This document shows positions 7,086-31,378 of a DNA stretch of 42,634 bases, piece by piece. Origin of the DNA: Candidatus Micrarchaeota archaeon (GTDB lineage Archaea > B1Sed10-29 > B47-G15); NCBI GenBank assembly GCA_003660975.1, contig QMVG01000007.1:1-42634 (forward strand). Direction: 5' to 3'. Position 1 is the stretch's first letter. Every line of letters starts with the position of its first letter. Made by a program: the position numbers and the translations under genes. Under the pieces are notes generated by a model. That model did no database searches. It was not told the origin of the DNA and saw only the letters and a program-made list of their open reading frames with translations.

Positions 7086-7502
7086 TCACCACGGACTAGG
7101 TTCGTAGCTGAGCGAAATGTTAATTGATTTGTCTATTTGATATGAGGAAACACCAACATTTGCCAACTTGCCGTCCACGTAAAAAAGCCAGAACAAACCT
7201 TTTTCCTTATTTTCTTCAACCCCTCCTATTGATGTGATATAAGCACCCATGCCGGGATATGTTTTGTAGCGTAACTCGTCTACATTATCTCTTATGACAT
7301 CAAAGACTGTAGAACCCCTTTCAACAGAAATATTCTTAAAAATATCTTCTCCAGCCCCGTTAAATAAGATTTTTAGGTATACAGTTACATTTCCGCTTTC
7401 ATTATGGGTATTTACTCCTGTGTTTATTGGAAATATATAGAAAAAAAGAAGGGACAATATAACTATGCTAATGAGTAATATTTTGCCTTCCCAATGTTTC
7501 AA
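7086..7502 (-). CDS. Membrane-anchored DUF4430 (transcobalamin C-terminal-like) protein, putative cobalamin-binding
   Basis: N-terminal TM, GSTVFDV...GAYITSIGGVE...FWLFYVDG...VGVSSY motif; overlaps stop of upstream gene. Confidence 0.8.
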   Translation of the reverse strand: MKHWEGKILLISIVILSLLFFYIFPINTGVNTHNESGNVTVYLKILFNGAGEDIFKNISVERGSTVFDVIRDNVDELRYKTYPGMGAYITSIGGVEENKEKGLFWLFYVDGKLANVGVSSYQIDKSINISLSYEPSPW

Positions 7503-9658
7503 TAAAATCCCCTTCTATTTTTCATGAAAAACAGATATAAAAGAATAACAAGTACAACAGAAATTAAAATAAGAAGCAACTCAAATACGTGGAAATCAAT
7601 ACGTGCTGTTGCCATGGCTGTGATTGGCTTATTTTCAGCTTCCCTTGTCTTGCTTGCTTTACTTGTATTGTCTTTAGCTGTACGGCCTTTGCTACTTAGC
7701 CCTTCCCTGCCCTCATAAACAGAGTATGGGCTTTGGCCGCCTGCTGTTGCTTTTTCTCCTGTTCTTTCATTGAGTGTGGTATTGCTCGTGCTGTAACTTT
7801 CATTCTCAGAACTTGCGTTCAAAGAAGAGACATTAACAGCTGCATTTTCAGTTTTGTTCACACTCTCGTTTCCTTTGCTCTTGTTTTTGAATAGAGTTGG
7901 AGGTATATATGTATATCCGCCACCGCCGTACGAAGAACCTCCACTTCTCTTTTTTTCCAAGACAGTTGTGCTAGCTGAAGCCCTTGCAATGTTCCCAGCA
8001 AGGTCTTTGCACTCTCCGTAGACTCTCTTTTCGCCAGTGCCTGGGCTGAGAGTCCATGAGACATTAGTGGGGCTCTGCCATGAAGACCATGTGGAATTAT
8101 CATTACTATACCTACACTTGTAAGCCAGTTTTGCATCTGGCACTATGACAACAGAGTGTGAATATGCATCATCGTGTTTTAGGGAAAATGAAAAGTATGG
8201 TGCTCTGTTGTCAAAATGTCTATTTGTCAATGTCATCAATGCCAGAGCAGTATCCATGGCATTTGACTTGTTCTCTCTCTGATAGTTCCTGTTAAAGCCA
8301 AAGTCAGACATCTGGAGCTTTTTTAAACAAATTAATGCTTTGCTAACATTGCTTGAATTTCCATAGCCGTAACTTCTTAGAGCCATAACAGCAAATGCTG
8401 TTACTCTCGGATCATCCGGGCTGCTCTGGTTTTCATCATAAGACCAACAACCATTGCTTCTCTGGACGGACAGGATATATGACAAAGCCCTTGAACTGTT
8501 GCTGTCGTTCACATTCTGCATAGCAAAAGCGAGAAGAGATTCTGCAGTAAATTCAATGGGCTTAGGCTTGCACAAAGAACAGCCAGGAACTATATATGGT
8601 GTGCTTCCGTTGGGCATCTGAGAATTCCTTATGAACTGCGTTGCGTTTGTTTGGATATTTTTCATAGATAGCGCCATAACAACCCAGTCTGTTGAATCTA
8701 TGTCTGTAGAGCCAAAGAAACCAAAGCCGGTGTTGTTAGCTTGTTGGGAGAGAATGTAATCTATAGGAGTATCTCCACTGCTGTTCTGGATATGTGAAAC
8801 ATTAAAGCCCACATGCTCAAGAGCCAAGACATATGCAGATGTTGTCAAAATATCAACGCCCCAGCCAGATGACCAACCTGGTCCTGGATTGCTAAGCACG
8901 CATGAATTATTAGCATATCTTATTGACTCATTTGCTAAAATGCCTGCATCATACATGCCCATCATTCCAAAAGGGTGATTCCAAGCAGCAAATCCACCAA
9001 TCTTGCCACTACTTGCATTAAGATTGTATAAAAGCCAAGACATAAGCTCTTTTGTCATGTTTTGTTTGTCAAGCACGCGTACTGTGCTTATCAAATTCCA
9101 ATTTGAGTCATAAGTTGCATTTACTGTGAAATTAACGTAATGCCTTGCCTTTAATGTGTATCTGCCAGAAGCCAAGTGTAAAGAGACATTGAGCTCTCCA
9201 TTAGAATCTGTGTTTCCTATGCTAACGTTGCTTCTGCAATCCGTAAAATTACACAGTATTATGCTAACATTTGCGATGCCTGAATTGTTCTCATAGCTAA
9301 CATTAACGTAAAGTCCTGTTGAGTCTGGCATATATCTTAGCTCTATCGTGTCATTGCCTTGTAAAATATATGAGCTTACACCTACCATTGATAGACTCCC
9401 ATTAACGTAAAAAGCCCAATAGTCATTGCCCCTTGGAGCAACCCCGTTAACAGCTGTTATGTTATATCCAGCTCCAGAGGAATAATAAGAAAGGCTCAAG
9501 GTTGAATTAAAAGCGTCAAATGCTGTCTGATTTGAAGACGCATTGAAACTAGTGTTCACATCTGACCCCAAGAAAGTGGGAAAGTCAGCCACAACACTTA
9601 CATTAAAAGCAAATGCAACGTGCATAGCTAAAGCTAAGAGTATCACAAATCTCCTCAT
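7499..9658 (-). CDS. Surface glycoprotein: DUF4430 + Ig-like + prenyltransferase-like alpha/alpha barrel + Ig-like + linker + C-terminal TM; putative cobalamin receptor
   Basis: Signal peptide; TAFDA..ITAVNGV..YWAFYVNG..VGVSSY; repeats such as ALSYILSVQRSNGCW and LKKLQMSDFGF; C-terminal TM with basic tail; dense N-x-S/T. Confidence 0.75.
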   Translation of the reverse strand: MRRFVILLALAMHVAFAFNVSVVADFPTFLGSDVNTSFNASSNQTAFDAFNSTLSLSYYSSGAGYNITAVNGVAPRGNDYWAFYVNGSLSMVGVSSYILQGNDTIELRYMPDSTGLYVNVSYENNSGIANVSIILCNFTDCRSNVSIGNTDSNGELNVSLHLASGRYTLKARHYVNFTVNATYDSNWNLISTVRVLDKQNMTKELMSWLLYNLNASSGKIGGFAAWNHPFGMMGMYDAGILANESIRYANNSCVLSNPGPGWSSGWGVDILTTSAYVLALEHVGFNVSHIQNSSGDTPIDYILSQQANNTGFGFFGSTDIDSTDWVVMALSMKNIQTNATQFIRNSQMPNGSTPYIVPGCSLCKPKPIEFTAESLLAFAMQNVNDSNSSRALSYILSVQRSNGCWSYDENQSSPDDPRVTAFAVMALRSYGYGNSSNVSKALICLKKLQMSDFGFNRNYQRENKSNAMDTALALMTLTNRHFDNRAPYFSFSLKHDDAYSHSVVIVPDAKLAYKCRYSNDNSTWSSWQSPTNVSWTLSPGTGEKRVYGECKDLAGNIARASASTTVLEKKRSGGSSYGGGGYTYIPPTLFKNKSKGNESVNKTENAAVNVSSLNASSENESYSTSNTTLNERTGEKATAGGQSPYSVYEGREGLSSKGRTAKDNTSKASKTREAENKPITAMATARIDFHVFELLLILISVVLVILLYLFFMKNRRGFY

Positions 9659-9677
9659 GAATTACACCTCCTATTCC

Positions 9678-10199
9678 TCAGGTTAGATACACTGCCTTGC
9701 TAATCTCCTCTACCTTGTCTTTCACAACATCAATGAAAAGGGCAGCGTGCGGTAAGCACAAGGGAACTATAACAGTATTGCCAATTATCTGTATTGCAGC
9801 AAATGGGATTGCCATTATTGTTGCCAACAAAAGGGATTGACCTGTAATCAAAGGCCAAGCTGAATTCACTATTACCTGATAAAGCAAGGTGAGAAATGCT
9901 GCTGAGGTAGCCAGCTTTTTCCTATCCTTTATATATGATTTCGGCAGGAACCCTGAAATAAAACCCACCAAGCCAAAAGCGGAAAATGTGAAGAACGTCC
10001 ACGGGCCTGGAAGGCCTATGTAGAGGTCGCTAAGCAAAAGCGCCAAAGAGCCTGTTAGAAAACCCTGGATTGGACCATATCTCAAACCAGCCAACATGGC
10101 AAAGGCTGTTATTGGTTCTAGGTTTGGAATGCCTGCCATAATAGCTCTGGCCACGGCGGCGGATGATACTAATGCGGGTAAGGTAAATTTTCCCTTCAC
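9678..10199 (-). CDS. ECF transporter S-component, CbrT-like (cobalamin)
   Basis: 173-aa hydrophobic protein with AVAR...IPNLEP, G..YGP..GF..G, SD...G.PGPWT; B12 gene context. Confidence 0.8.
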   Translation of the reverse strand: MKGKFTLPALVSSAAVARAIMAGIPNLEPITAFAMLAGLRYGPIQGFLTGSLALLLSDLYIGLPGPWTFFTFSAFGLVGFISGFLPKSYIKDRKKLATSAAFLTLLYQVIVNSAWPLITGQSLLLATIMAIPFAAIQIIGNTVIVPLCLPHAALFIDVVKDKVEEISKAVYLT

Positions 10200-10208
10200 A
10201 TAAACACC

Positions 10209-10760
10209 TCAGTACTCTATTCCTCTTCTTGCTCTCATTCCTTTTTGATAGGAGTGTTTTATTTCTCTCATCTCTGTTACGAGGTCAGCAGCATTTATCA
10301 ATTCCTCTTTTGCTTTTCGCCCTGTTATCACCAACTCAACCTGTTTAGGCTTCTCCTTTATCAAAGACAGCACATCATCAATGGAGATATATCCCATATG
10401 CACCGCCACGTTCAGCTCGTCAAGTATCACCAAGTCATATTGCCCACTCATAATGGTTTTTCTTGCTTCCTTAAGACCTTCCAAGGCCCAATGCTTGTCC
10501 TTGTCAGGGACTGGAGCAAGGCAAGACGGATCTGGTTCACCACTGGGGAGTGCTGGGCATGGCCTGCCGTATTGTTTTACATAAACGCCTAATTTCTTAA
10601 GCGATTTAAGTTCCCCTGAAGGATATGACTTGAGGAACTGAAGCAAGGCAACGTTCAGTGAAGAGCCCCTGGCTCTCACAGCAAGCCCAATTGCGGATGT
10701 CGTTTTTCCCTTGCCATTTCCTGTATAGACCTGGACGATTCCTTTGCTCAAATGTGGCAT
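10209..10760 (-). CDS. cobO: ATP:cob(I)alamin adenosyltransferase (BtuR/CobO/CobA type)
   Basis: VYTGNGKGKTTSAIGLA.RA, QFLK, YDLVILDE, ELVITGR, ADLVTEM..IKH, ARRGIEY. Confidence 0.95.
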   Translation of the reverse strand: MPHLSKGIVQVYTGNGKGKTTSAIGLAVRARGSSLNVALLQFLKSYPSGELKSLKKLGVYVKQYGRPCPALPSGEPDPSCLAPVPDKDKHWALEGLKEARKTIMSGQYDLVILDELNVAVHMGYISIDDVLSLIKEKPKQVELVITGRKAKEELINAADLVTEMREIKHSYQKGMRARRGIEY

Positions 10761-12874
10761 GTTGGGCAGCCCCCTGCATAATCTGCTTCAACTGTTACCT
10801 TGCCATTTTCGTAGCTTATAGGCCCTTGCTTCTCTTTTTCGGATTTGCTCACGCCTATGTTTAGCACCTGCTCTGCCCTTGAGCCATCTCTGTATATCGT
10901 TATGCCCTTACATCCCATCTCATAAGCCATTAGGTATGCTTTTCTAACATCATCAACAGTTGCTGAGTTTGGCATATTGATGGTTTTGCTTACAGCGCTG
11001 TCAACATATTTCTGGAAAACTGCCTGCATCTTGATGTGGTCCTCTGGCTTGATATCAAGAGCAGTGACAAATATTCTTTTAACATCATCAGGTACCTCTT
11101 CCATATCCTGAACAGAACCTTTTGCAGCAATCCTCTCCATTAAGGCCTCTGAATAGAAACCTCTTTCCCTTGCTACCTTTTCAAAGTAAGGATTAACTTC
11201 CAGCATAGGCTCTCCATCAAGTATATTTTTCCTAACAAAGCAGATTGCAAACAATGGCTCTATGCTGCTGCTGCATCCTGCAATAATGCTAGTTGTACCT
11301 GTTGGAGCTATGGTGGTAACAGCTGCATTTCTCATAGGAATTCCCTGCTTTCCATATATGCTCCTGTCCCACGCAGGGAAGTTTCCTCTCTTTTTTGCAA
11401 GCTCCTGCGAGGCCTTGTGGCTCTCTTCTTTTATAAACTTCATCAGCTTTTCAGCTAACTGCAAAGCTTCTTCTGAATCATATGGTATGCCCAATTGAAT
11501 TAACATGTCTGCAAAGCCCATAACACCTAGCCCTATTTTCCTTGTCGTTTTAGACATCTCCTCTATCTGTTTCAGAGGAAACTTGTTCATATCAATAACA
11601 TTGTCCAAAAAGTGAACGCCTTTGTGGACGAGCTCTCTTAACTTATCCCAATTAACATCTCCATCTTTGACGAGCTTGGCCAGGTTTATGTGCCCCAAAT
11701 TGCAAGACTCATATGGAAGTAATGGCTGTTCCCCGCAGGGGTTTGTTGCCTCTATTTCTCCTAAGTCTGGTGTTGGGTTGTGCTTGTTTATTGTATCAAG
11801 AAATATCATGCCAGGGTCTCCGTTCTTCCAGGCCATATTCACTATCAAATCAAAAACCTGCTTGGCGTTCAATTTGCCTACTGGTTTTTTTGTTCTGGGA
11901 TTTATGAGCTCGTAATCTTCTCCTTTCTTCACGGCCTCCATGAACTCATCTGTAGCTCCAACAGAGATATTGAAGTTCGTGAGACTCTTGCCATCCATCT
12001 TGGCAGTTATGAACTCAACTATGTCTGGATGGTCCACGCGCAGCACGCCCATGTTCGCTCCTCTTCTCTTCCCTCCCTGCTTGATCACATCAGTAGTCAC
12101 ATCAAAGACTCTCATAAATGAAACAGGTCCTGAGGCCACGCCTCTTGTGGTCTTCACAACATCTCCTTTTGGCCTTAACCTGGAAAATGAGAAGCCAGTG
12201 CCTCCTCCACTCTGGTGTATCTTGGCAGTGTATTTAACAGCATCAAAGATGCCATCCAAAGAATCCTCAACGGGAAGCACAAAGCAAGCAGAAAGCTGCT
12301 GAATCACTGTGCCTGCGTTCATCAAACAAGGGCTATTGGGTATGAACTCAAAATTAGACATCATATCAAAGAATTCTTCCTCAGTTTTCTTTACATTTGC
12401 GTTTGGGTCATAAAGAAGGTCGGCCTGGGCTATGTTCTTGGCCACTCTCCTAAACATCTCGGCAGGGGTTTCTATAACCTTGCCTGTTAGGTCTTTTTGA
12501 AGATACCTCTTCTTCAAAACGGTCATTGCATTTTCCATTTTCTGAATTTTCTCATTGAGAGCTCTTATCTTTCTCAATCTCGCTCTCTCTTCCCTGTAAA
12601 GTATATATGCTTTCGCAACCTCTGCCTGACCTGCCATTATAAGGACTGTTTCAACTATGTCCTGAATGTCTTCAACACCTGGTATCGTATGCCCATCAAA
12701 CCTGTCCTCCAGCTCTTGAACGACCTTGTCAGTTAATGCTTTTGCAAGCGTTTCATTCTTTTTGCCCACAGCTTCCATTGCCTTCAAAATAGCAATAGTA
12801 ATTTTCGTTGGGTCAAAATCAACGATGTTGCCCTCTCTTTTCCTAATCTGCCTCAAACTGTAATCTACTACCAT
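10748..12874 (-). CDS. nrdJ: Adenosylcobalamin-dependent class II ribonucleotide reductase with N-terminal ATP-cone
   Basis: ATP-cone (IRKREG...VEDIQDIVE), PNSP.LMNAG, QLSACFV, TNPCGEQ, ESCNLG, IAPTGT, VSKTINM, C-terminal CPTC; no intein. Confidence 0.95.
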
Positions 12875-13005
12875 CCCAATCCCTGCCTACGATTAAACTT
12901 TCTTATCAATCTGCCTGCTTCAATAAGCAAAAGGATAAGGAAATAGTTATATTAAAATGCTTCGCTTCAGAAATCAAACAAAATTAGGAGAACAACTTAG
13001 AAAAA

Positions 13006-13416
13006 TTAACAATTGCGTTGTCTTTCACTGTTTTTGCGCTTCCTGTAGTCTCCTATGGCCTTACGCAGTGCCTCAACAGCTAACACAGAACAGTGAAGTT
13101 TCACTGGAGCTAAGCCGTCCAACTTTTTCAAAACATCATCCTTTGTGAGCTTTTCAGCTTCTTCTATTGTCATTCCCTTTATCATATCTGTGAGAATACT
13201 CGAACTGGAAATCGCAGCCACACAGCCAAATGTTTGAAATTTCACATCTGTTATTACATTGTCCTTTACTTTTATGTAAAGGTACATCACGTCTCCGCAA
13301 ACTGGATTTCCCACTCTACCGATGCCGTCAGCGTCTTTTATCTCACCCATATTGTGTGGATTTCTAAAATGCTCCAAAACCTTTTTTGAATATCTGAATG
13401 CATCCATCTTCATCAA
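13006..13416 (-). CDS. iscU: Fe-S cluster scaffold IscU/NifU-like
   Basis: YS..VLEHFRNP.NMG, GNPVCGD, FQTFGC.AAI, KLHCSVL. Confidence 0.95.
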   Translation of the reverse strand: MMKMDAFRYSKKVLEHFRNPHNMGEIKDADGIGRVGNPVCGDVMYLYIKVKDNVITDVKFQTFGCVAAISSSSILTDMIKGMTIEEAEKLTKDDVLKKLDGLAPVKLHCSVLAVEALRKAIGDYRKRKNSERQRNC

Positions 13417-14588
13417 CCTTTTACATCGTAGTTGTCAAAGCTGTGCTTGAACGGGCTTATCTGCCTCAATTCATCAACGCAAAGCTTAATTTTCTCTACA
13501 GCATATTTTGTTTCCTCCATGCTGTTAAATCTCCCAAAAGTCATTCTAACAGTACCATGTATGATTTTGTGGTCAAGACCTATGGCAGATAAGACATGTG
13601 ATGGTTTTAATGACCTTGAAGAACAAGCACTGCCTGTTGAAACAGCTATCCCATAGTCATCTAATTTGTAAAGTAAGCTCTCTCCCTCAATATACTTAAA
13701 AGTTATATTGGCATTATTGACAAGTCGCCTGTTTGGATTGTCAATACCAGGACCGTTAAGCAAACTGTCTTCTACCTCCAACAGCTCTCTAACAAGATAA
13801 TCTCTCATGCTTTTTATCTTTGAGATCTCATTTGCTGTCATAAGCTCAGCAGCTTTTGCAAAAGCAACTGCTCCAGCCACGTTTTCTGTTCCAGGCCTTT
13901 TGCCAAACTCGTGAGGCCCTCCGTAAAACAGTGGCTCTATTTCAATGCCTTCTCTCACGAACAATGCCCCAACTCCTTTTGGGCCGTGAATCTTATGCGA
14001 AGCCATGCTTATCATATCCACGCCTGTCTTTTTCACATCTATAGGAACTTTTGTAAAGCTCTGCACACAGTCCATATGGAGAATACTCCCTTTATCATGC
14101 ACGATCTCTGATATGGCTTTCATATCTTGAACTGTGCCTATCTCATTGTTGCCGTGAATTATGCTAACCAGGATGACATCGCCACTCAACTCGTCTTGCA
14201 ATGCATCTAGATTCAAGAATCCTTCTGAATCCACTGCTAGCTTTACAACACCAAAACCTCTTTCTTTCACAGCCAACATCGTGTTGTTAACAGCAGGGTG
14301 TTCAATTGTGGATGTTAACAATTTTCCTTTTTTCTTGGCTAAGCATATTCCCTGTATTGCCAAGTTATCGCTCTCAGTTCCCCCAGAAGTGAAAACAATC
14401 TCATTGGCATTTGCATTTATTTTCTTGGCAATGCTTTCCCTTGCTCTCTCAAGCGCCTCTCTTGCCTCTCTGCCAAAAGCATGTAGTGAAGAAGCATTGC
14501 CATAGATGTCCGTGAGATACTTTTTCATCTCTTCAGCAACTGCAGGGTCCACTCTTGTGGTAGCTGCATTGTCTAAATAAACCCTCAT
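13413..14588 (-). CDS. iscS: Cysteine desulfurase IscS/NifS
   Basis: VYLDNAATT, FTSGGTESDN, IEHPAV, NNEIGT, SHKIHGPKG (PLP Lys), STGSACSS; ATG 14588 with GGAGG RBS. Confidence 0.95.
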   Translation of the reverse strand: MRVYLDNAATTRVDPAVAEEMKKYLTDIYGNASSLHAFGREAREALERARESIAKKINANANEIVFTSGGTESDNLAIQGICLAKKKGKLLTSTIEHPAVNNTMLAVKERGFGVVKLAVDSEGFLNLDALQDELSGDVILVSIIHGNNEIGTVQDMKAISEIVHDKGSILHMDCVQSFTKVPIDVKKTGVDMISMASHKIHGPKGVGALFVREGIEIEPLFYGGPHEFGKRPGTENVAGAVAFAKAAELMTANEISKIKSMRDYLVRELLEVEDSLLNGPGIDNPNRRLVNNANITFKYIEGESLLYKLDDYGIAVSTGSACSSRSLKPSHVLSAIGLDHKIIHGTVRMTFGRFNSMEETKYAVEKIKLCVDELRQISPFKHSFDNYDVKG

Positions 14589-14590
14589 AG

Positions 14591-14929
14591 CTAAGCCTCC
14601 AAAAAGTGCTTTCTTTTTGGATTTAGGTATTGCAATATGCCAGCTTTCCAAAGCTTTTGGCATGTGCTACAGAAAAGCTGTTGGTTATCTGCCTCAGCGA
14701 TTTGCTCAACAGCTTCTCTTATTATTTTCATCATGCTCTTGTTCTTGTAAAGTTTTTTAGCTCTCGCTCCCCTGGACATATTAAGATAGTAGGACACTGC
14801 TGCCTGGCTAACACCGAGGTACGAGGCCACTTCTTGCTGTTTAAGGCCCTTCTTTTTCAATTCGGCTGCAAAGACGGCCCTCACAGCAGGCAATATTTCC
14901 TTTGAAACTATCTCACAACGAGTTATCAT
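14591..14929 (-). CDS. Archaeal HTH transcriptional regulator with Cys motifs (COG2522-like)
   Basis: CE.....LPAVRA..A, HTH GLKQQEVASYLGVSQAAVSYYL..RG, C-terminal CSTC. Confidence 0.85.
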   Translation of the reverse strand: MITRCEIVSKEILPAVRAVFAAELKKKGLKQQEVASYLGVSQAAVSYYLNMSRGARAKKLYKNKSMMKIIREAVEQIAEADNQQLFCSTCQKLWKAGILQYLNPKRKHFLEA

Positions 14930-23602: not shown

Positions 23603-25795
23603 TCACGCTCCTGCATTCCTTCTGTTTCTTATGGCGCTTGTTATTCTCTGTCTTATCAGCGCTGGGTTTAATACATCTTCCTTTTTTATCGTGGCATTTC
23701 TAAGTCTCTCGTCAAGTATGCCCAATCTTCCCTGCCCATACTTCTGCAGTACTTTGCTAATGCCTTTTCTGCTAATTTTTGTTTTTACTGCTGAGCGCCA
23801 TGCCTTTGTTATCCTTTGCCTCAAGGTTGCCTCAACCTGCTTTGCGCCTGTATACTCTGCCTTTGCAGCGCTTAGGTTCTTATTCAAAAGAGCCTTCTGT
23901 GCTTTTATTATCCTATCTCTGTATTCATAGAACTTCCTTCTGATAGCACTTACATCTCCGCCTTTTGCTTTTATTGCTGCCACTAACCTCTCCGCATTCC
24001 TCTCTGCCCTGCGCAGTCTGTTTCTGAGCAATACTCTTTGTTTTTTCAAAAACTCGCTTCTTGACAAGGCGAAGTGCCTCTGTATCTCATTCCTTACTCT
24101 CTTTGCTTCAGTTATATTCCCGCTTTCTATAGCTGAAATATATTTCTGCTTTTCCTCTTCCATTTGCTGTAGCCTGCTTTCCATCAGGCTGACATTCAGA
24201 CCCCTGTTGTAGAGCCTGTTAATCTTTTCCTTCAGCAGACAGATGTGCAGCTCTATTATCTTTCTCTCAACATCTTTCAACTGCTGGACAATGTTTTGCC
24301 ACTGCTCTCTCCTTTCCTGCTTGTAGCTCTCTCTTATCTGCTTTATCCTAGACCTTATCTCATTAGCGTACTGGTCCAAGCCCTCAATTTCATGCGCCTT
24401 GGTCCTGAACTCCCTTATCTTTTCCTTCATCTCTCTAACCAAAGGCTTTAATTCGCCCGCATCGGCATCCTTCATTTCACTTGCAATTGAAGATGCATCA
24501 TGCCTTATGCTTTTCAGCTCAGTGGAGTCTATGCCATATTCATCTGCCACAGCAATGACTGCGTCCATCTCCTCTATGATCTGCTCTGCGTAGAACTTGT
24601 CAAGAGCCGCACCAGCGTTGCTCCTTAACCTAAGGAATGCTCGCCTGCCCTGTCTCATAATCCTCCTCAATTCCTCTGAGCAGACAGATTCCTTTCTCCT
24701 AATCTTAGGAGCTTTTACGACAGACGCAAACAACTCTTCTCCTGATGCCTCACTGCTGTCACACTCTCCAACGTAGTCAACCTCCACTCCTGCTGCCTCT
24801 GCCATACACTCGTTTGAATAGGTTTTTCCGTCAATGCCACAGACAGGGTCATACTCCATGGTGCATGCAACTATTGGAGTTGTGATTACATTAGTTCCTC
24901 CGCCTACTGACGCTGCTGCCCCTGTCTCGCTCTCTGCTGCACCCTGCGATTCCTCTTCAGCGCAGTGATACTCTACTTCAGCAGTAGCAGTCAAAGTATT
25001 CTGGGCTACAAAAGTAGGAGTCACGCTCTTAAGGGTCACAGTAAGCCTTCCTACTTTTACAGAGCTGCCTGTATTTACTGTCTTCTCAACTGTCTGGCCG
25101 TCAGATGTAATCCTAAACTTTGCCTGAGAGGTAGAGGCCAAAAGCAGTTCAACTGAGCCGCAGTCTGTTTTCATTACCTCTCCTACCTTTATGAAAGGGC
25201 CTGATACGCTCAGACACTCATACTCGCAGGAAACAATAACTGTCTGGATGTTTTGCTCTGTGAAGCCTGCCTCTGCTGAGTGGACAGTTATCTTTAAGTT
25301 GCCAATAGTAACTGAGCTTCCTACGTTTACTGTCTTTGTAGTTGTATATCCTCCTGAGCTTATTGAGAAAGTAGCTGACTTTCCAGGTGAAGCTATGTTC
25401 AATGTAAACGAACCGCAGTTTGTATGAACTGTGTCTCCTGCTGTCATTATTGGGTGAGTAGTGCTTGATGCACTTAGACACTCATACTCGTAGGAAACTA
25501 TGCCTGTCTGGATGTTTTGCCCTGTGAAGCCTATCTCTGCTGAGTGGACAGTTATCTTTAAGTTGCCTACGGTAACTGAGCTTCCTACGTTTACTGTCTC
25601 TGTAGCTGTCTGTGCCCCTGAGCTTATTGAGAAAGTGGCTGACTTTCCGGGTGAAACCATATTCAATTTAAATGAACCACAGTTCGTCTGAACTGTGTCT
25701 CCTGATGTCATTATTGGGTGTGCTGCGACTGCTGTCCCTACAAAGGCAAGCAAGACAAGCGCTGTGAAGACCAAAACAGGTCCTCTTAAAGCCAA
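23603..25795 (-). CDS. Secreted multidomain protein: 3 beta-rich repeats + Kazal-type inhibitor domain + long coiled-coil
   Basis: GGAGGTG RBS + TTG; signal peptide; repeats HPIMT.GDTV.TNCGSF...YEC; ACTMEYDPVCGIDGKTYSNEC...GEC; helical C-half. Confidence 0.8.
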   Translation of the reverse strand: MALRGPVLVFTALVLLAFVGTAVAAHPIMTSGDTVQTNCGSFKLNMVSPGKSATFSISSGAQTATETVNVGSSVTVGNLKITVHSAEIGFTGQNIQTGIVSYEYECLSASSTTHPIMTAGDTVHTNCGSFTLNIASPGKSATFSISSGGYTTTKTVNVGSSVTIGNLKITVHSAEAGFTEQNIQTVIVSCEYECLSVSGPFIKVGEVMKTDCGSVELLLASTSQAKFRITSDGQTVEKTVNTGSSVKVGRLTVTLKSVTPTFVAQNTLTATAEVEYHCAEEESQGAAESETGAAASVGGGTNVITTPIVACTMEYDPVCGIDGKTYSNECMAEAAGVEVDYVGECDSSEASGEELFASVVKAPKIRRKESVCSEELRRIMRQGRRAFLRLRSNAGAALDKFYAEQIIEEMDAVIAVADEYGIDSTELKSIRHDASSIASEMKDADAGELKPLVREMKEKIREFRTKAHEIEGLDQYANEIRSRIKQIRESYKQERREQWQNIVQQLKDVERKIIELHICLLKEKINRLYNRGLNVSLMESRLQQMEEEKQKYISAIESGNITEAKRVRNEIQRHFALSRSEFLKKQRVLLRNRLRRAERNAERLVAAIKAKGGDVSAIRRKFYEYRDRIIKAQKALLNKNLSAAKAEYTGAKQVEATLRQRITKAWRSAVKTKISRKGISKVLQKYGQGRLGILDERLRNATIKKEDVLNPALIRQRITSAIRNRRNAGA
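25212..25720. repeat. Intragenic tandem duplication, period 264 bp (units 25212-25456 and 25476-25720)
   Basis: Both units start AGACACTCATACTCG and end GTCATTATTGGGTG, with long identical stretches. Confidence 0.9.
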
Positions 25796-30611: not shown

Positions 30612-31355
30612 TCACAAGCTCTCAACAACACCATCAATTGTTTTTATAGCTATTTCCTTGGTGTACGGCTTGCACTTCTTGGCAATCTCCTTCAATTTTT
30701 CTTCAGAGCTGACCTCCTCAAGCACAGAGGGGTCAACAACAGCTCTTGAAGCATCCAATTGCTGGAGAAGGTACCTATCACAGTTCCTTCCAATGTCTTG
30801 AGCTATCTTGACAATGTCATGCTCGTGAAGTAAAGCAGGAACAAAGGTCGTCTTGCACTCAAAGAAAAATTTCAAAGCAGGTCTTACCTCAAATATTTGC
30901 CTTATGCCTGTTAATACTTTTTCAGGGTCAATGCCTCCTAAAAGCTTTTTGTAATGGTTTTTTCTATGCAAAGGGGCTTTAATGTCAAGAGACAGGTAAT
31001 CCAGAGCGTTTTGAGTGGCCATTTTTATAACAGCCCCTGCATTTTCCCCGTTTGTGTTAAGCTTTATCTTCAGACCTTCCTCTTTAAATGACTTTGCAAG
31101 AAAAATTAAAGCCTCTTCCTGCTCTGTTGCTTCGCCTCCATCAAACGTGACTGCCTCTATAAGCTGCCTCTGTTCCATGACTTGGTTAAAAACATCTTCA
31201 ACAGAGTAATCCTTACATGTCAGAGGGTCTAGAATGTCTTTTTCATAGCAAAAAGGACACCTGTATCTGCAACCTCCAAAGTAAATCACAGCTGACGACA
31301 AGCCAGGCCACTCCAGCGTAGAGACATTAACTATCCTGCCTATTTTAACGTCCAT
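30612..31355 (-). CDS. Glycyl-radical activase-family radical SAM protein (NrdG-like)
   Basis: GCRYRCPFC, GGEAT, KLNTNG, LDIKAP, KTTFVP. Confidence 0.8.
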   Translation of the reverse strand: MDVKIGRIVNVSTLEWPGLSSAVIYFGGCRYRCPFCYEKDILDPLTCKDYSVEDVFNQVMEQRQLIEAVTFDGGEATEQEEALIFLAKSFKEEGLKIKLNTNGENAGAVIKMATQNALDYLSLDIKAPLHRKNHYKKLLGGIDPEKVLTGIRQIFEVRPALKFFFECKTTFVPALLHEHDIVKIAQDIGRNCDRYLLQQLDASRAVVDPSVLEEVSSEEKLKEIAKKCKPYTKEIAIKTIDGVVESL

Positions 31356-31378
31356 AATTATCTTATGCAAAAAGAGGT

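Follow-up and report, generated by a model that had tools for sequence, protein, structure and literature searches.

The cofactors of ultra-small symbiotic archaea must come from their neighbours. How vitamin B12 could be gathered and put to use by such an organism is the question raised by five genes at 7086-12874 of a 42,634-nucleotide stretch of a Candidatus Micrarchaeota genome (contig QMVG01000007.1), referred to below as the window. These genes encode a class II ribonucleotide reductase (NrdJ) dependent on adenosylcobalamin (AdoCbl), a CobO/BtuR-type ATP:corrinoid adenosyltransferase, a CbrT-like membrane protein with the fold of a transporter S-component, and two surface proteins with DUF4430 domains. 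We propose that they form a module for the capture, import, activation and use of vitamin B12 (corrinoid) in an archaeon with a small genome that depends on external corrinoid, being unable to make B12 itself; we put the probability of this reading as a whole at about 0.7. An initial annotation of the window had proposed the same path, describing it as a self-contained operon with an energy-coupling factor (ECF) type importer. Most of the path stands up to the analysis presented here, and those two descriptions do not.

nrdJ, cobO and a CbrT-like membrane protein

The end of the proposed path is marked by its first two genes, both on the minus strand. NrdJ (10748-12874, 708 aa, with an N-terminal ATP-cone) scores 1032 bits against the full-length NCBIfam equivalog NF006417 (cut-off 961) and 783.3 bits against TIGR02504 (cut-off 399.95), with Pfam matches to PF02867 (492.6 bits) and the ATP-cone (77.1 bits). 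The adenosyltransferase (10209-10760, 183 aa) matches PF02572 over positions 2-172 of 172 (203.2 bits) and passes TIGR00708 (168.5 bits, cut-off 167.75) and NF004637 (186.8 bits, cut-off 185), the latter two by narrow margins. On these curated models the class II NrdJ and the CobA/CobO/BtuR adenosyltransferase, both named in the initial annotation, are secure. CobO would adenosylate cob(I)alamin to AdoCbl, which NrdJ would bind for the production of deoxyribonucleotides.

The third gene (9678-10199, minus strand, GTG start) encodes a 173-aa membrane protein that passes the cut-offs of three S-component families of Pfam (PF07155, 42.7 bits; DUF6580, 39.2 bits; PF12822, 34.2 bits) and matches none of the substrate-specific NCBIfam models. 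Its best match in the PDB, searched with the single sequence in phmmer, is 6fnp_A (E 5e-4, residues 5-161). This entry shows the vitamin B12 transporter ECF-CbrT from Lactobacillus delbrueckii (PMC5997447); its chain A (182 aa, with the label 'Membrane protein') is taken as CbrT by inference from the entry's paper. In an exhaustive HMMER search the family reached 1083 representatives at E <= 1e-3, of which 56 passed E <= 1e-10. Profile A1, made of 31 sequences drawn from this family, finds 6fnp_A over its full length at E 9.4e-22, followed by 4hzu_S (7.9e-5) and FolT (0.064). The family divides into two motif groups: the window's group carries SD-x-Y-x-G-x-PGPWT-x-x-T and the larger group SN-x-FFGQGPWTPWQM. 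Nine of the ten long family members scanned with Pfam are EcfA-EcfA'-S fusions, all of which the motif list places in the larger group; the profile was therefore rebuilt from the window's group alone (A5, 24 sequences, with five orthologues from the phylum added). A5 finds 6fnp_A at E 1.8e-18 and the next S-component at 0.056. With both profiles selecting CbrT far above other S-components, the homology of the 173-aa protein to the B12 S-component CbrT holds up in silico as specific, CbrT being the type to which the protein had been assigned at the outset.

Structural modelling agrees with this placement as regards the fold. The AlphaFold2 model (pLDDT 94.0, pTM 0.88) predicts the six-helix S-component fold: in VIA-align, 22 S-component entries score from Z 16.8 (rmsd 2.4, 149 residues aligned) down to 10.1, and the next entry scores 5.6. 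A Foldseek search of the PDB returned no match at E <= 0.001; its top entries were S-components, and 6FNP and 6FFV were not among the matches listed. Within the S-components FolT ranks first and BtuM last (Z 10.1), and the substrate cannot be read from the fold alone.

The remaining two genes complete the operon, and the coordinates and junctions of all five, initially described as co-oriented with overlaps or gaps below 20 bp, were reproduced. The start of cobO lies within the end of nrdJ (13-bp overlap), gaps of 9 and 19 bp separate the CbrT-like gene from cobO and from the gene of a large surface glycoprotein (7499-9658, minus strand, 719 aa, type I membrane topology), and the latter overlaps the gene of a small anchored DUF4430 protein (7086-7502, minus strand, 138 aa, TTG start) by the 4 bp TTGA, the TTG start of the small gene lying on the stop of the large one. 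This tight packing is inherited and not due to chance, because the same gene order is seen in distant relatives. A convergent open reading frame (ORF) lies directly past the 138-aa gene, the last of the operon. Short pieces spanning all five genes (95-100% identical, at least 4/5 gene junctions bridged) also occur in the contigs of four DNA runs; they stem from the same organism, present at low depth in other samples, and hence are not independent evolutionary support.

Upstream of nrdJ, an AT-rich intergenic region of 131 bp (12875-13005, minus strand) holds a TATA-like TTTTAATATAA, spotted by eye, and is a candidate promoter from which the five genes may be transcribed together. At the gathering thresholds of Rfam the window contains tRNA only, with no RNA family in the 131-bp spacer; the cobalamin riboswitch RF00174 was not found upstream of the uptake genes in the window, and eight related loci gave tRNAs only. 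To our knowledge, archaea are not expected to carry this riboswitch. On the far side of the spacer, 131 bp upstream of nrdJ, are the genes for a NifU-like scaffold and a class-V cysteine desulfurase (13006-14663, minus strand, with a mutual overlap of 4 bp), and read-through from this pair into the operon is possible.

DUF4430 surface proteins and their likeness to transcobalamin

The path would begin outside the cell, where the membrane-anchored 138-aa protein would capture the corrinoid. This protein has an N-terminal hydrophobic segment (aa 3-31) and a DUF4430 domain (PF14478, 55.2 bits over aa 63-134, cut-off 23.8). A second DUF4430 domain is present in the 719-aa protein at aa 44-109 (9332-9529, minus strand), where it scores 42.3 bits against the same cut-off and 46.7 bits in a six-frame search. 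Profile A4, assembled from seven archaeal DUF4430 domains including that of the 719-aa protein, matches haptocorrin (4kki_A, residues 323-431; E 1.3e-8) and, more weakly, intrinsic factor in its C-terminal domain (E 0.0024). The resemblance to the transcobalamin beta-domain pointed out in the initial annotation is thereby confirmed at profile level, as homology of the DUF4430 domains to the B12-binding beta-domain (SLBB fold) of haptocorrin and intrinsic factor.

The 719-aa protein had been described as a large DUF4430 surface protein, which is correct as far as it goes; its alpha/alpha toroid and its C-terminal membrane anchor had been missed. Its parts follow one another as signal peptide, DUF4430/SLBB domain, linker, alpha/alpha toroid, beta-rich region, Ser/Asn/Thr-rich stalk and C-terminal transmembrane anchor, with hydrophobic segments at aa 3-26 and aa 684-715. 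It contains 41 N-x-S/T sequons, compared with 12.7 +/- 3.0 in shuffled sequences, and is predicted to be extracellular and heavily N-glycosylated. The toroid (about aa 196-493; 8180-9073, minus strand), some 85 residues away from the DUF4430 domain, matches Prenyltrans with 29.9 bits on the whole protein and 32.6 bits when excised (cut-off 26.5), and the excised part matches SQHop_cyclase_C with 27.5 bits (cut-off 26.1). An ESM model of the toroid part from the Atlas matches toroid models with TM-scores of 0.73-0.80 (query-normalised), and an AlphaFold2 model of residues 25-560 computed without an alignment was of low confidence (pLDDT 31.2, pTM 0.18).

Judged by its domains, this protein is a reversed transcobalamin-like fusion that holds both modules of the eukaryotic B12 carriers transcobalamin, intrinsic factor and haptocorrin (PDB 4KKI, 2PMV, 3KQ4): the DUF4430 domain is homologous to their C-terminal beta-domain, and the toroid has the fold of their alpha-domain. 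Unlike these carriers, in which the alpha6/alpha6 domain (PF01122) precedes the beta-domain, it places beta before alpha, shows no detectable PF01122 homology, and is tethered to the membrane and predicted to be heavily glycosylated. In the lineage of this archaeon the N-glycosylated protein would join the small one in capture, combining two domains as transcobalamin does, but the other way round.

It is conceivable, though unlikely, that the 719-aa glycoprotein is instead a general surface protein, for example an adhesin or an S-layer-associated protein, and that only the small DUF4430 protein serves B12 uptake. Several observations point that way and weigh against a part for the large protein in our model. 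Among 31 genomes of the phylum, the present one included (the set on which all counts below are based), a toroid-bearing protein is found here alone, with no homologue of the 719-aa protein in the other 30, and two word-index searches returned the protein itself only. The toroid resembles TED, prenyltransferase and terpene-cyclase-like models generically, and a comparison with PF01122 (Cobalamin_bind, the transcobalamin alpha-domain) yielded no match at E values up to 10. Against this reading, the protein carries a bona fide DUF4430 domain and is encoded 19 bp behind the S-like gene, with a 4-bp overlap suggesting translational coupling to the 138-aa gene. SLBB-toroid fusions in either order have, moreover, been predicted to sandwich B12 (PMC1796856). 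Atlas clusters of the same architecture occur in Methanobacteriota and in bacteria of the candidate phyla radiation (CPR); with scores below 0.9 these are leads only, and the CPR clusters (DUF4430, SQHop_cyclase, and PF01122 in 17% of members), which scored 0.77, were set aside as below the meaningful level.

Corrinoid supply and an apparently missing ECF module

From the surface proteins the corrinoid would be handed to the 173-aa protein and carried across the membrane. A complex predicted for this protein with the small DUF4430 protein's ectodomain has ipSAE values of 0.47, 0.01 and 0.01, which speak neither for nor against an interaction. What drives the transport depends on what else the genome encodes. 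The genome bin (G000) comprises 1.33 Mb in 130 contigs (C1-C130) and is 89.7% complete, with a reported contamination of 0.27%. Its GC content is bimodal, 47 contigs (938 kb) lying below 44% and 83 contigs (395 kb) between 44 and 65%; the bin is mixed, and statements on gene content are best confined to its low-GC core (about 40% GC), to which the window belongs with 41%. In the whole bin, CobS, CbiB, CbiC and a BtuC-type FecCD protein had no match, which is in keeping with the absence of cob/cbi and btuFCD on which the proposal of B12 scavenging depends, and no other importer of corrinoids is recognisable.

An ECF module is likewise not in evidence. EcfT was not detected in the bin with the Pfam model PF02361, nor by tblastn with the CbiQ of another genome of the phylum (G018). 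The same model finds EcfT in Methanocaldococcus jannaschii, Haloferax volcanii, Sulfolobus acidocaldarius and Methanosarcina acetivorans. Across the phylum EcfT/CbiQ occurs in 2/31 genomes, and it is absent from five of the six genomes that encode the S-like and DUF4430 proteins side by side, two of them 91% and 96% complete. The sixth is G018, in which CbiQ/EcfT is encoded beside an ABC ATPase. The transporter therefore apparently has no ECF module, and the terms ECF and self-contained of the initial annotation are not supported. Because no EcfT is detectable, the importer is probably solitary and acts without an ECF motor, a conclusion of which we are somewhat less certain than of the model as a whole. 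Transport would then be independent of ATP, and uptake would be pulled by trapping of the corrinoid inside the cell.

A solitary carrier of this kind has been proposed for BtuM of Thiobacillus denitrificans, a B12 transporter with the S-component fold (Rempel et al. 2018, PMC6072759; PDB 8C7P). Like BtuM, the 173-aa protein occurs in a genome with no detected ECF module. The two also differ: BtuM ligates cobalt through a cysteine (PMC6072759), its fold match is the weakest among the S-components for the 173-aa protein, and profiles A1 and A5 select CbrT, with BtuM not among the matches listed. Membership in the BtuM family was considered and rejected for want of a conserved cysteine of the BtuM kind; the sole cysteine, C148, is unconserved, the same column holding T or F in relatives 59-61% identical (P0002, P0003).

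Homology to CbrT bears on the motor in its own right. ECF-CbrT is an experimentally demonstrated transporter of cobalamin and cobinamide, and CbrT itself has an affinity for cyanocobalamin of about 9 nM (PMC5997447). Solitary CbrT of L. delbrueckii gave no rescue of an E. coli B12-uptake mutant in that study, so a CbrT homologue that works alone is not the default expectation. This weighs against our reading of the importer, as does the provisional nature of the absences, given a mixed bin of 89.7% completeness.

The same module could instead be driven by ATP, with the CbrT-like protein as a conventional S-component that docks on missed or divergent EcfT, EcfA and EcfA' proteins. We regard this as quite improbable. 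CbrT, the nearest solved relative, functions only with an ECF module (PMC5997447), EcfA-EcfA'-S fusions make up nine of the ten long family members scanned, G018 combines the gene pair with CbiQ/EcfT and an ABC ATPase, and the bin is only 89.7% complete. All this would fit a hidden motor, yet the combined result of the Pfam and tblastn searches, the lack of EcfT in 29 of the 31 genomes and in five of the six that carry the pair, and the success of the same model in four control archaea argue for a carrier that works on its own.

As to the fate of the imported corrinoid, the initial claim that AdoCbl is made specifically for deoxyribonucleotide synthesis remains plausible, but exclusivity is not given. 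Apart from NrdJ, the one B12-dependent enzyme of the bin is a methylmalonyl-CoA mutase, represented by genes for its large subunit, its B12-binding small subunit and a glyoxalase-type epimerase (G000:C6:35207-37600; L003, L004). As a second B12 consumer of the organism this mutase was rejected: the C6 stretch has about 60% GC, against about 40% in the core, and holds the only methylmalonyl-CoA mutase of the phylum (1/31 genomes). It is probably mis-binned foreign DNA.

Nor is NrdJ clearly the sole reductase. Core contig C2, far from the window, has the only NrdD-like ORF (TIGR02487, 147 bits, below the cut-off of 326), at whose C-terminus no glycyl-radical motif was seen by eye; the window encodes a NrdG2-type radical-SAM activase (30612-31370, minus strand; 145.2 bits, NCBIfam cut-off 131.15); and a possible second nrdJ of the organism (808 aa, G000:C47:44-2467, L014) is found on a 4.5-kb contig of 46.8% GC. 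Two nrdJ copies are also present in genome G030. NrdJ may thus share its task in this organism. Elsewhere in the window, a 730-aa ORF (23603-25795, minus strand) contains a Kazal-type serine-protease-inhibitor domain (41.6 bits), which is unusual for an archaeon.

Conservation, precedents and significance

Across the phylum, nrdJ is present in 13 genomes. All 13 encode an adenosyltransferase and none of the other 18 does, a perfect co-occurrence. The type of adenosyltransferase varies by lineage, being CobO in eight genomes and PduO in five, and its gene is adjacent to nrdJ in 8/8 and 3/5 cases, respectively (11/13 in total). An S-like gene is found in 6/31 genomes and DUF4430 in 6/31; these are the same six genomes, and the two genes are always neighbours. 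Profile A5 contains the six S-like sequences of the phylum, and the informative part of its scan is the 25 misses. nrdJ, cobO, the S-like gene and DUF4430 occur together in four genomes of three families, with S proteins 24-32% identical. The order nrdJ-cobO-S-DUF4430 is kept in G029 and G030; in G018 it is nrdJ-cobO-DUF4430-S, followed by an ArsR gene, and the S protein reaches 112 bits on DUF6580. In G004 the S/DUF4430 pair lies apart from nrdJ-pduO. What is conserved is thus the coupling of nrdJ to an adenosyltransferase gene and, separately, that of the S-like gene to DUF4430; in some lineages the two pairs are united.

The linkage is conserved in relatives, as the initial annotation required, with the four-gene set in 4/31 and the S/DUF4430 pair in 6/31 genomes. 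Other counts weigh against our reading of the operon. The pair is absent from 8 of the 13 genomes with nrdJ, and G021 (85% complete) has the pair with no nrdJ or adenosyltransferase detected. Beyond the phylum, a first metagenome scan gave no confirmed S-like locus; a second gave three short archaeal contigs with an S-like gene beside S-adenosylhomocysteine hydrolase or MCM, whose short flanks contain no nrdJ, cobO or DUF4430 (0/3). A scan of genome contigs for related loci was uninformative, its six weak hits being Oscillospiraceae loci that lack nrdJ, cobO and DUF4430 in the vicinity.

Some of the related loci have features of their own. In G018 the ArsR-family regulator gene (L007, 10552-10935) lies directly past the cluster. 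The S-like ORFs of G030 (L006, 9731-10757) and G029 (L005, 3105-4128) are 252-253 aa long and overlap the next DUF4430 ORF out of frame by about 180 bp, which reflects either a long C-terminal tail on the S protein or a DUF4430 start further downstream. In G027 (L009, 2469-3125) and G028 (L010, 2672-3319) nrdJ-cobO is followed by an ORF of 215-218 aa with no Pfam family above cut-off, which might stand in place of the S/DUF4430 pair; the L009 ORF has a weak match to Hjc (19.6 bits, against a cut-off of 21.1) and the L010 ORF none. The S-like homologues of two of the metagenome contigs (L023, L024) are 34-37% identical to the window's protein and are divergently oriented from the S-adenosylhomocysteine hydrolase gene; in each, an ORF with no Pfam family lies downstream of the S-like gene.

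A bacterial counterpart of the archaeal operon is the nrdJ-cbrS-cbrT-pduO cluster of the lactic acid bacterium L. delbrueckii. This cluster, with the ECF-CbrT transporter, is said to have been predicted by Rodionov et al. in 2009. In both organisms a B12-dependent ribonucleotide reductase, an adenosyltransferase and a CbrT-type protein are encoded together, and both hosts are B12 auxotrophs lacking BtuCDF (for the bacterium, Santos et al. 2018, PMC5997447; PDB 6FNP). The archaeal case differs in its host, in its adenosyltransferase, which is of the CobO and not the PduO type, and in the presence of two DUF4430 proteins anchored in the membrane, the larger of which also has a toroid; moreover, CbrT needs an ECF module (same source), and neither EcfT nor an ECF module is detectable here.

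The surface proteins have their own precedents. Burroughs, Balaji, Iyer and Aravind described in 2007 a prokaryotic transcobalamin-like clade of SLBB proteins, secreted or at the cell surface, as predicted B12 scavengers (PMC1796856). With that clade the present proteins share the SLBB-toroid fusion (in that study the two domains come in both orders), an operon with a paralogous further SLBB gene, and a host with no B12 synthesis. The operons of that study carry CbiO/CbiQ, unlike the present one, in which none was found. For archaea its authors were sceptical of a role in B12 scavenging, since the species concerned make B12 themselves (PMC1796856); in the present genome, by contrast, no B12 pathway is seen and the genes are tied to nrdJ-cobO. 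A split version is known from Lactobacillus sakei, in which Lsa1836-1840 comprise an ECF transporter with an exported transcobalamin beta-like protein (Lsa1839) and an alpha-like one (Lsa1840) (bioRxiv 10.1101/864751). There, too, an S-component is encoded alongside transcobalamin-like beta and alpha/alpha-toroid modules located outside the cytoplasm. The L. sakei operon, to which haem uptake has been assigned, differs in also encoding EcfA and EcfT; in the archaeon a single anchored glycoprotein combines beta and alpha modules, a second, beta-only protein is added, and the operon is headed by nrdJ-cobO.

One more explanation is that the S-like and DUF4430 proteins import haem, a corrinoid precursor or another metabolite and are only loosely related to the nrdJ-cobO neighbourhood. 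Such a substrate would suit the haem assignment in L. sakei and the other scavenged metabolite suggested by Burroughs et al. for archaeal SLBB proteins (PMC1796856), both of which count against corrinoid uptake, as well as the S-like genes beside S-adenosylhomocysteine hydrolase and the unaccompanied pair of G021; it is nonetheless highly improbable, given that the profile match to CbrT lies 13 to 17 orders of magnitude above that to any other solved S-component, that the pair stands directly behind nrdJ-cobO in four genomes of three families, that the organism depends on external corrinoid for NrdJ with no other recognisable importer, and that cobinamide, which CbrT also takes (PMC5997447), could not be finished here with neither CobS nor CbiB.

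The novelty of the module was overstated in the initial annotation, in that the bacterial cluster, the SLBB-toroid surface proteins with a predicted role in scavenging and the split transcobalamin-like ECF operon (for haem) are already published. A literature search, conducted mostly at the level of titles and the openings of abstracts, returned no description of such a module in archaea and none of B12 uptake by ultra-small symbiotic archaea. The present case is set apart by its archaeal host, by uptake genes tied to nrdJ-cobO in an organism that does not synthesise B12, by the lack of an ECF module and by an anchored glycoprotein in which beta and alpha domains are fused.

Returning to the proposed capture-import-activate-use module, a broader and more tentative idea, to which we would give somewhat less than an even chance, is that the CbrT-family proteins of DPANN archaea with no ECF module are distinct stand-alone, ATP-free B12 importers, supplied directly by transcobalamin relatives anchored in the membrane, with adenosylation and binding to NrdJ drawing the uptake, and that the 719-aa protein is a prokaryotic, membrane-tethered, domain-swapped counterpart of the animal carriers acting as a surface receptor. 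In practical terms, the operon would yield three proteins, of 173, 138 and 719 aa, on which binding and uptake could be assayed. If our reading is correct, the CbrT family reaches organisms that have no ECF motor, which would pose a mechanistic puzzle, as uptake was not restored to the E. coli mutant by CbrT alone. The prediction of transcobalamin-like surface proteins made in 2007 would gain an archaeal case with a clear B12 consumer, and DPANN archaea a concrete, testable route of B12 uptake.

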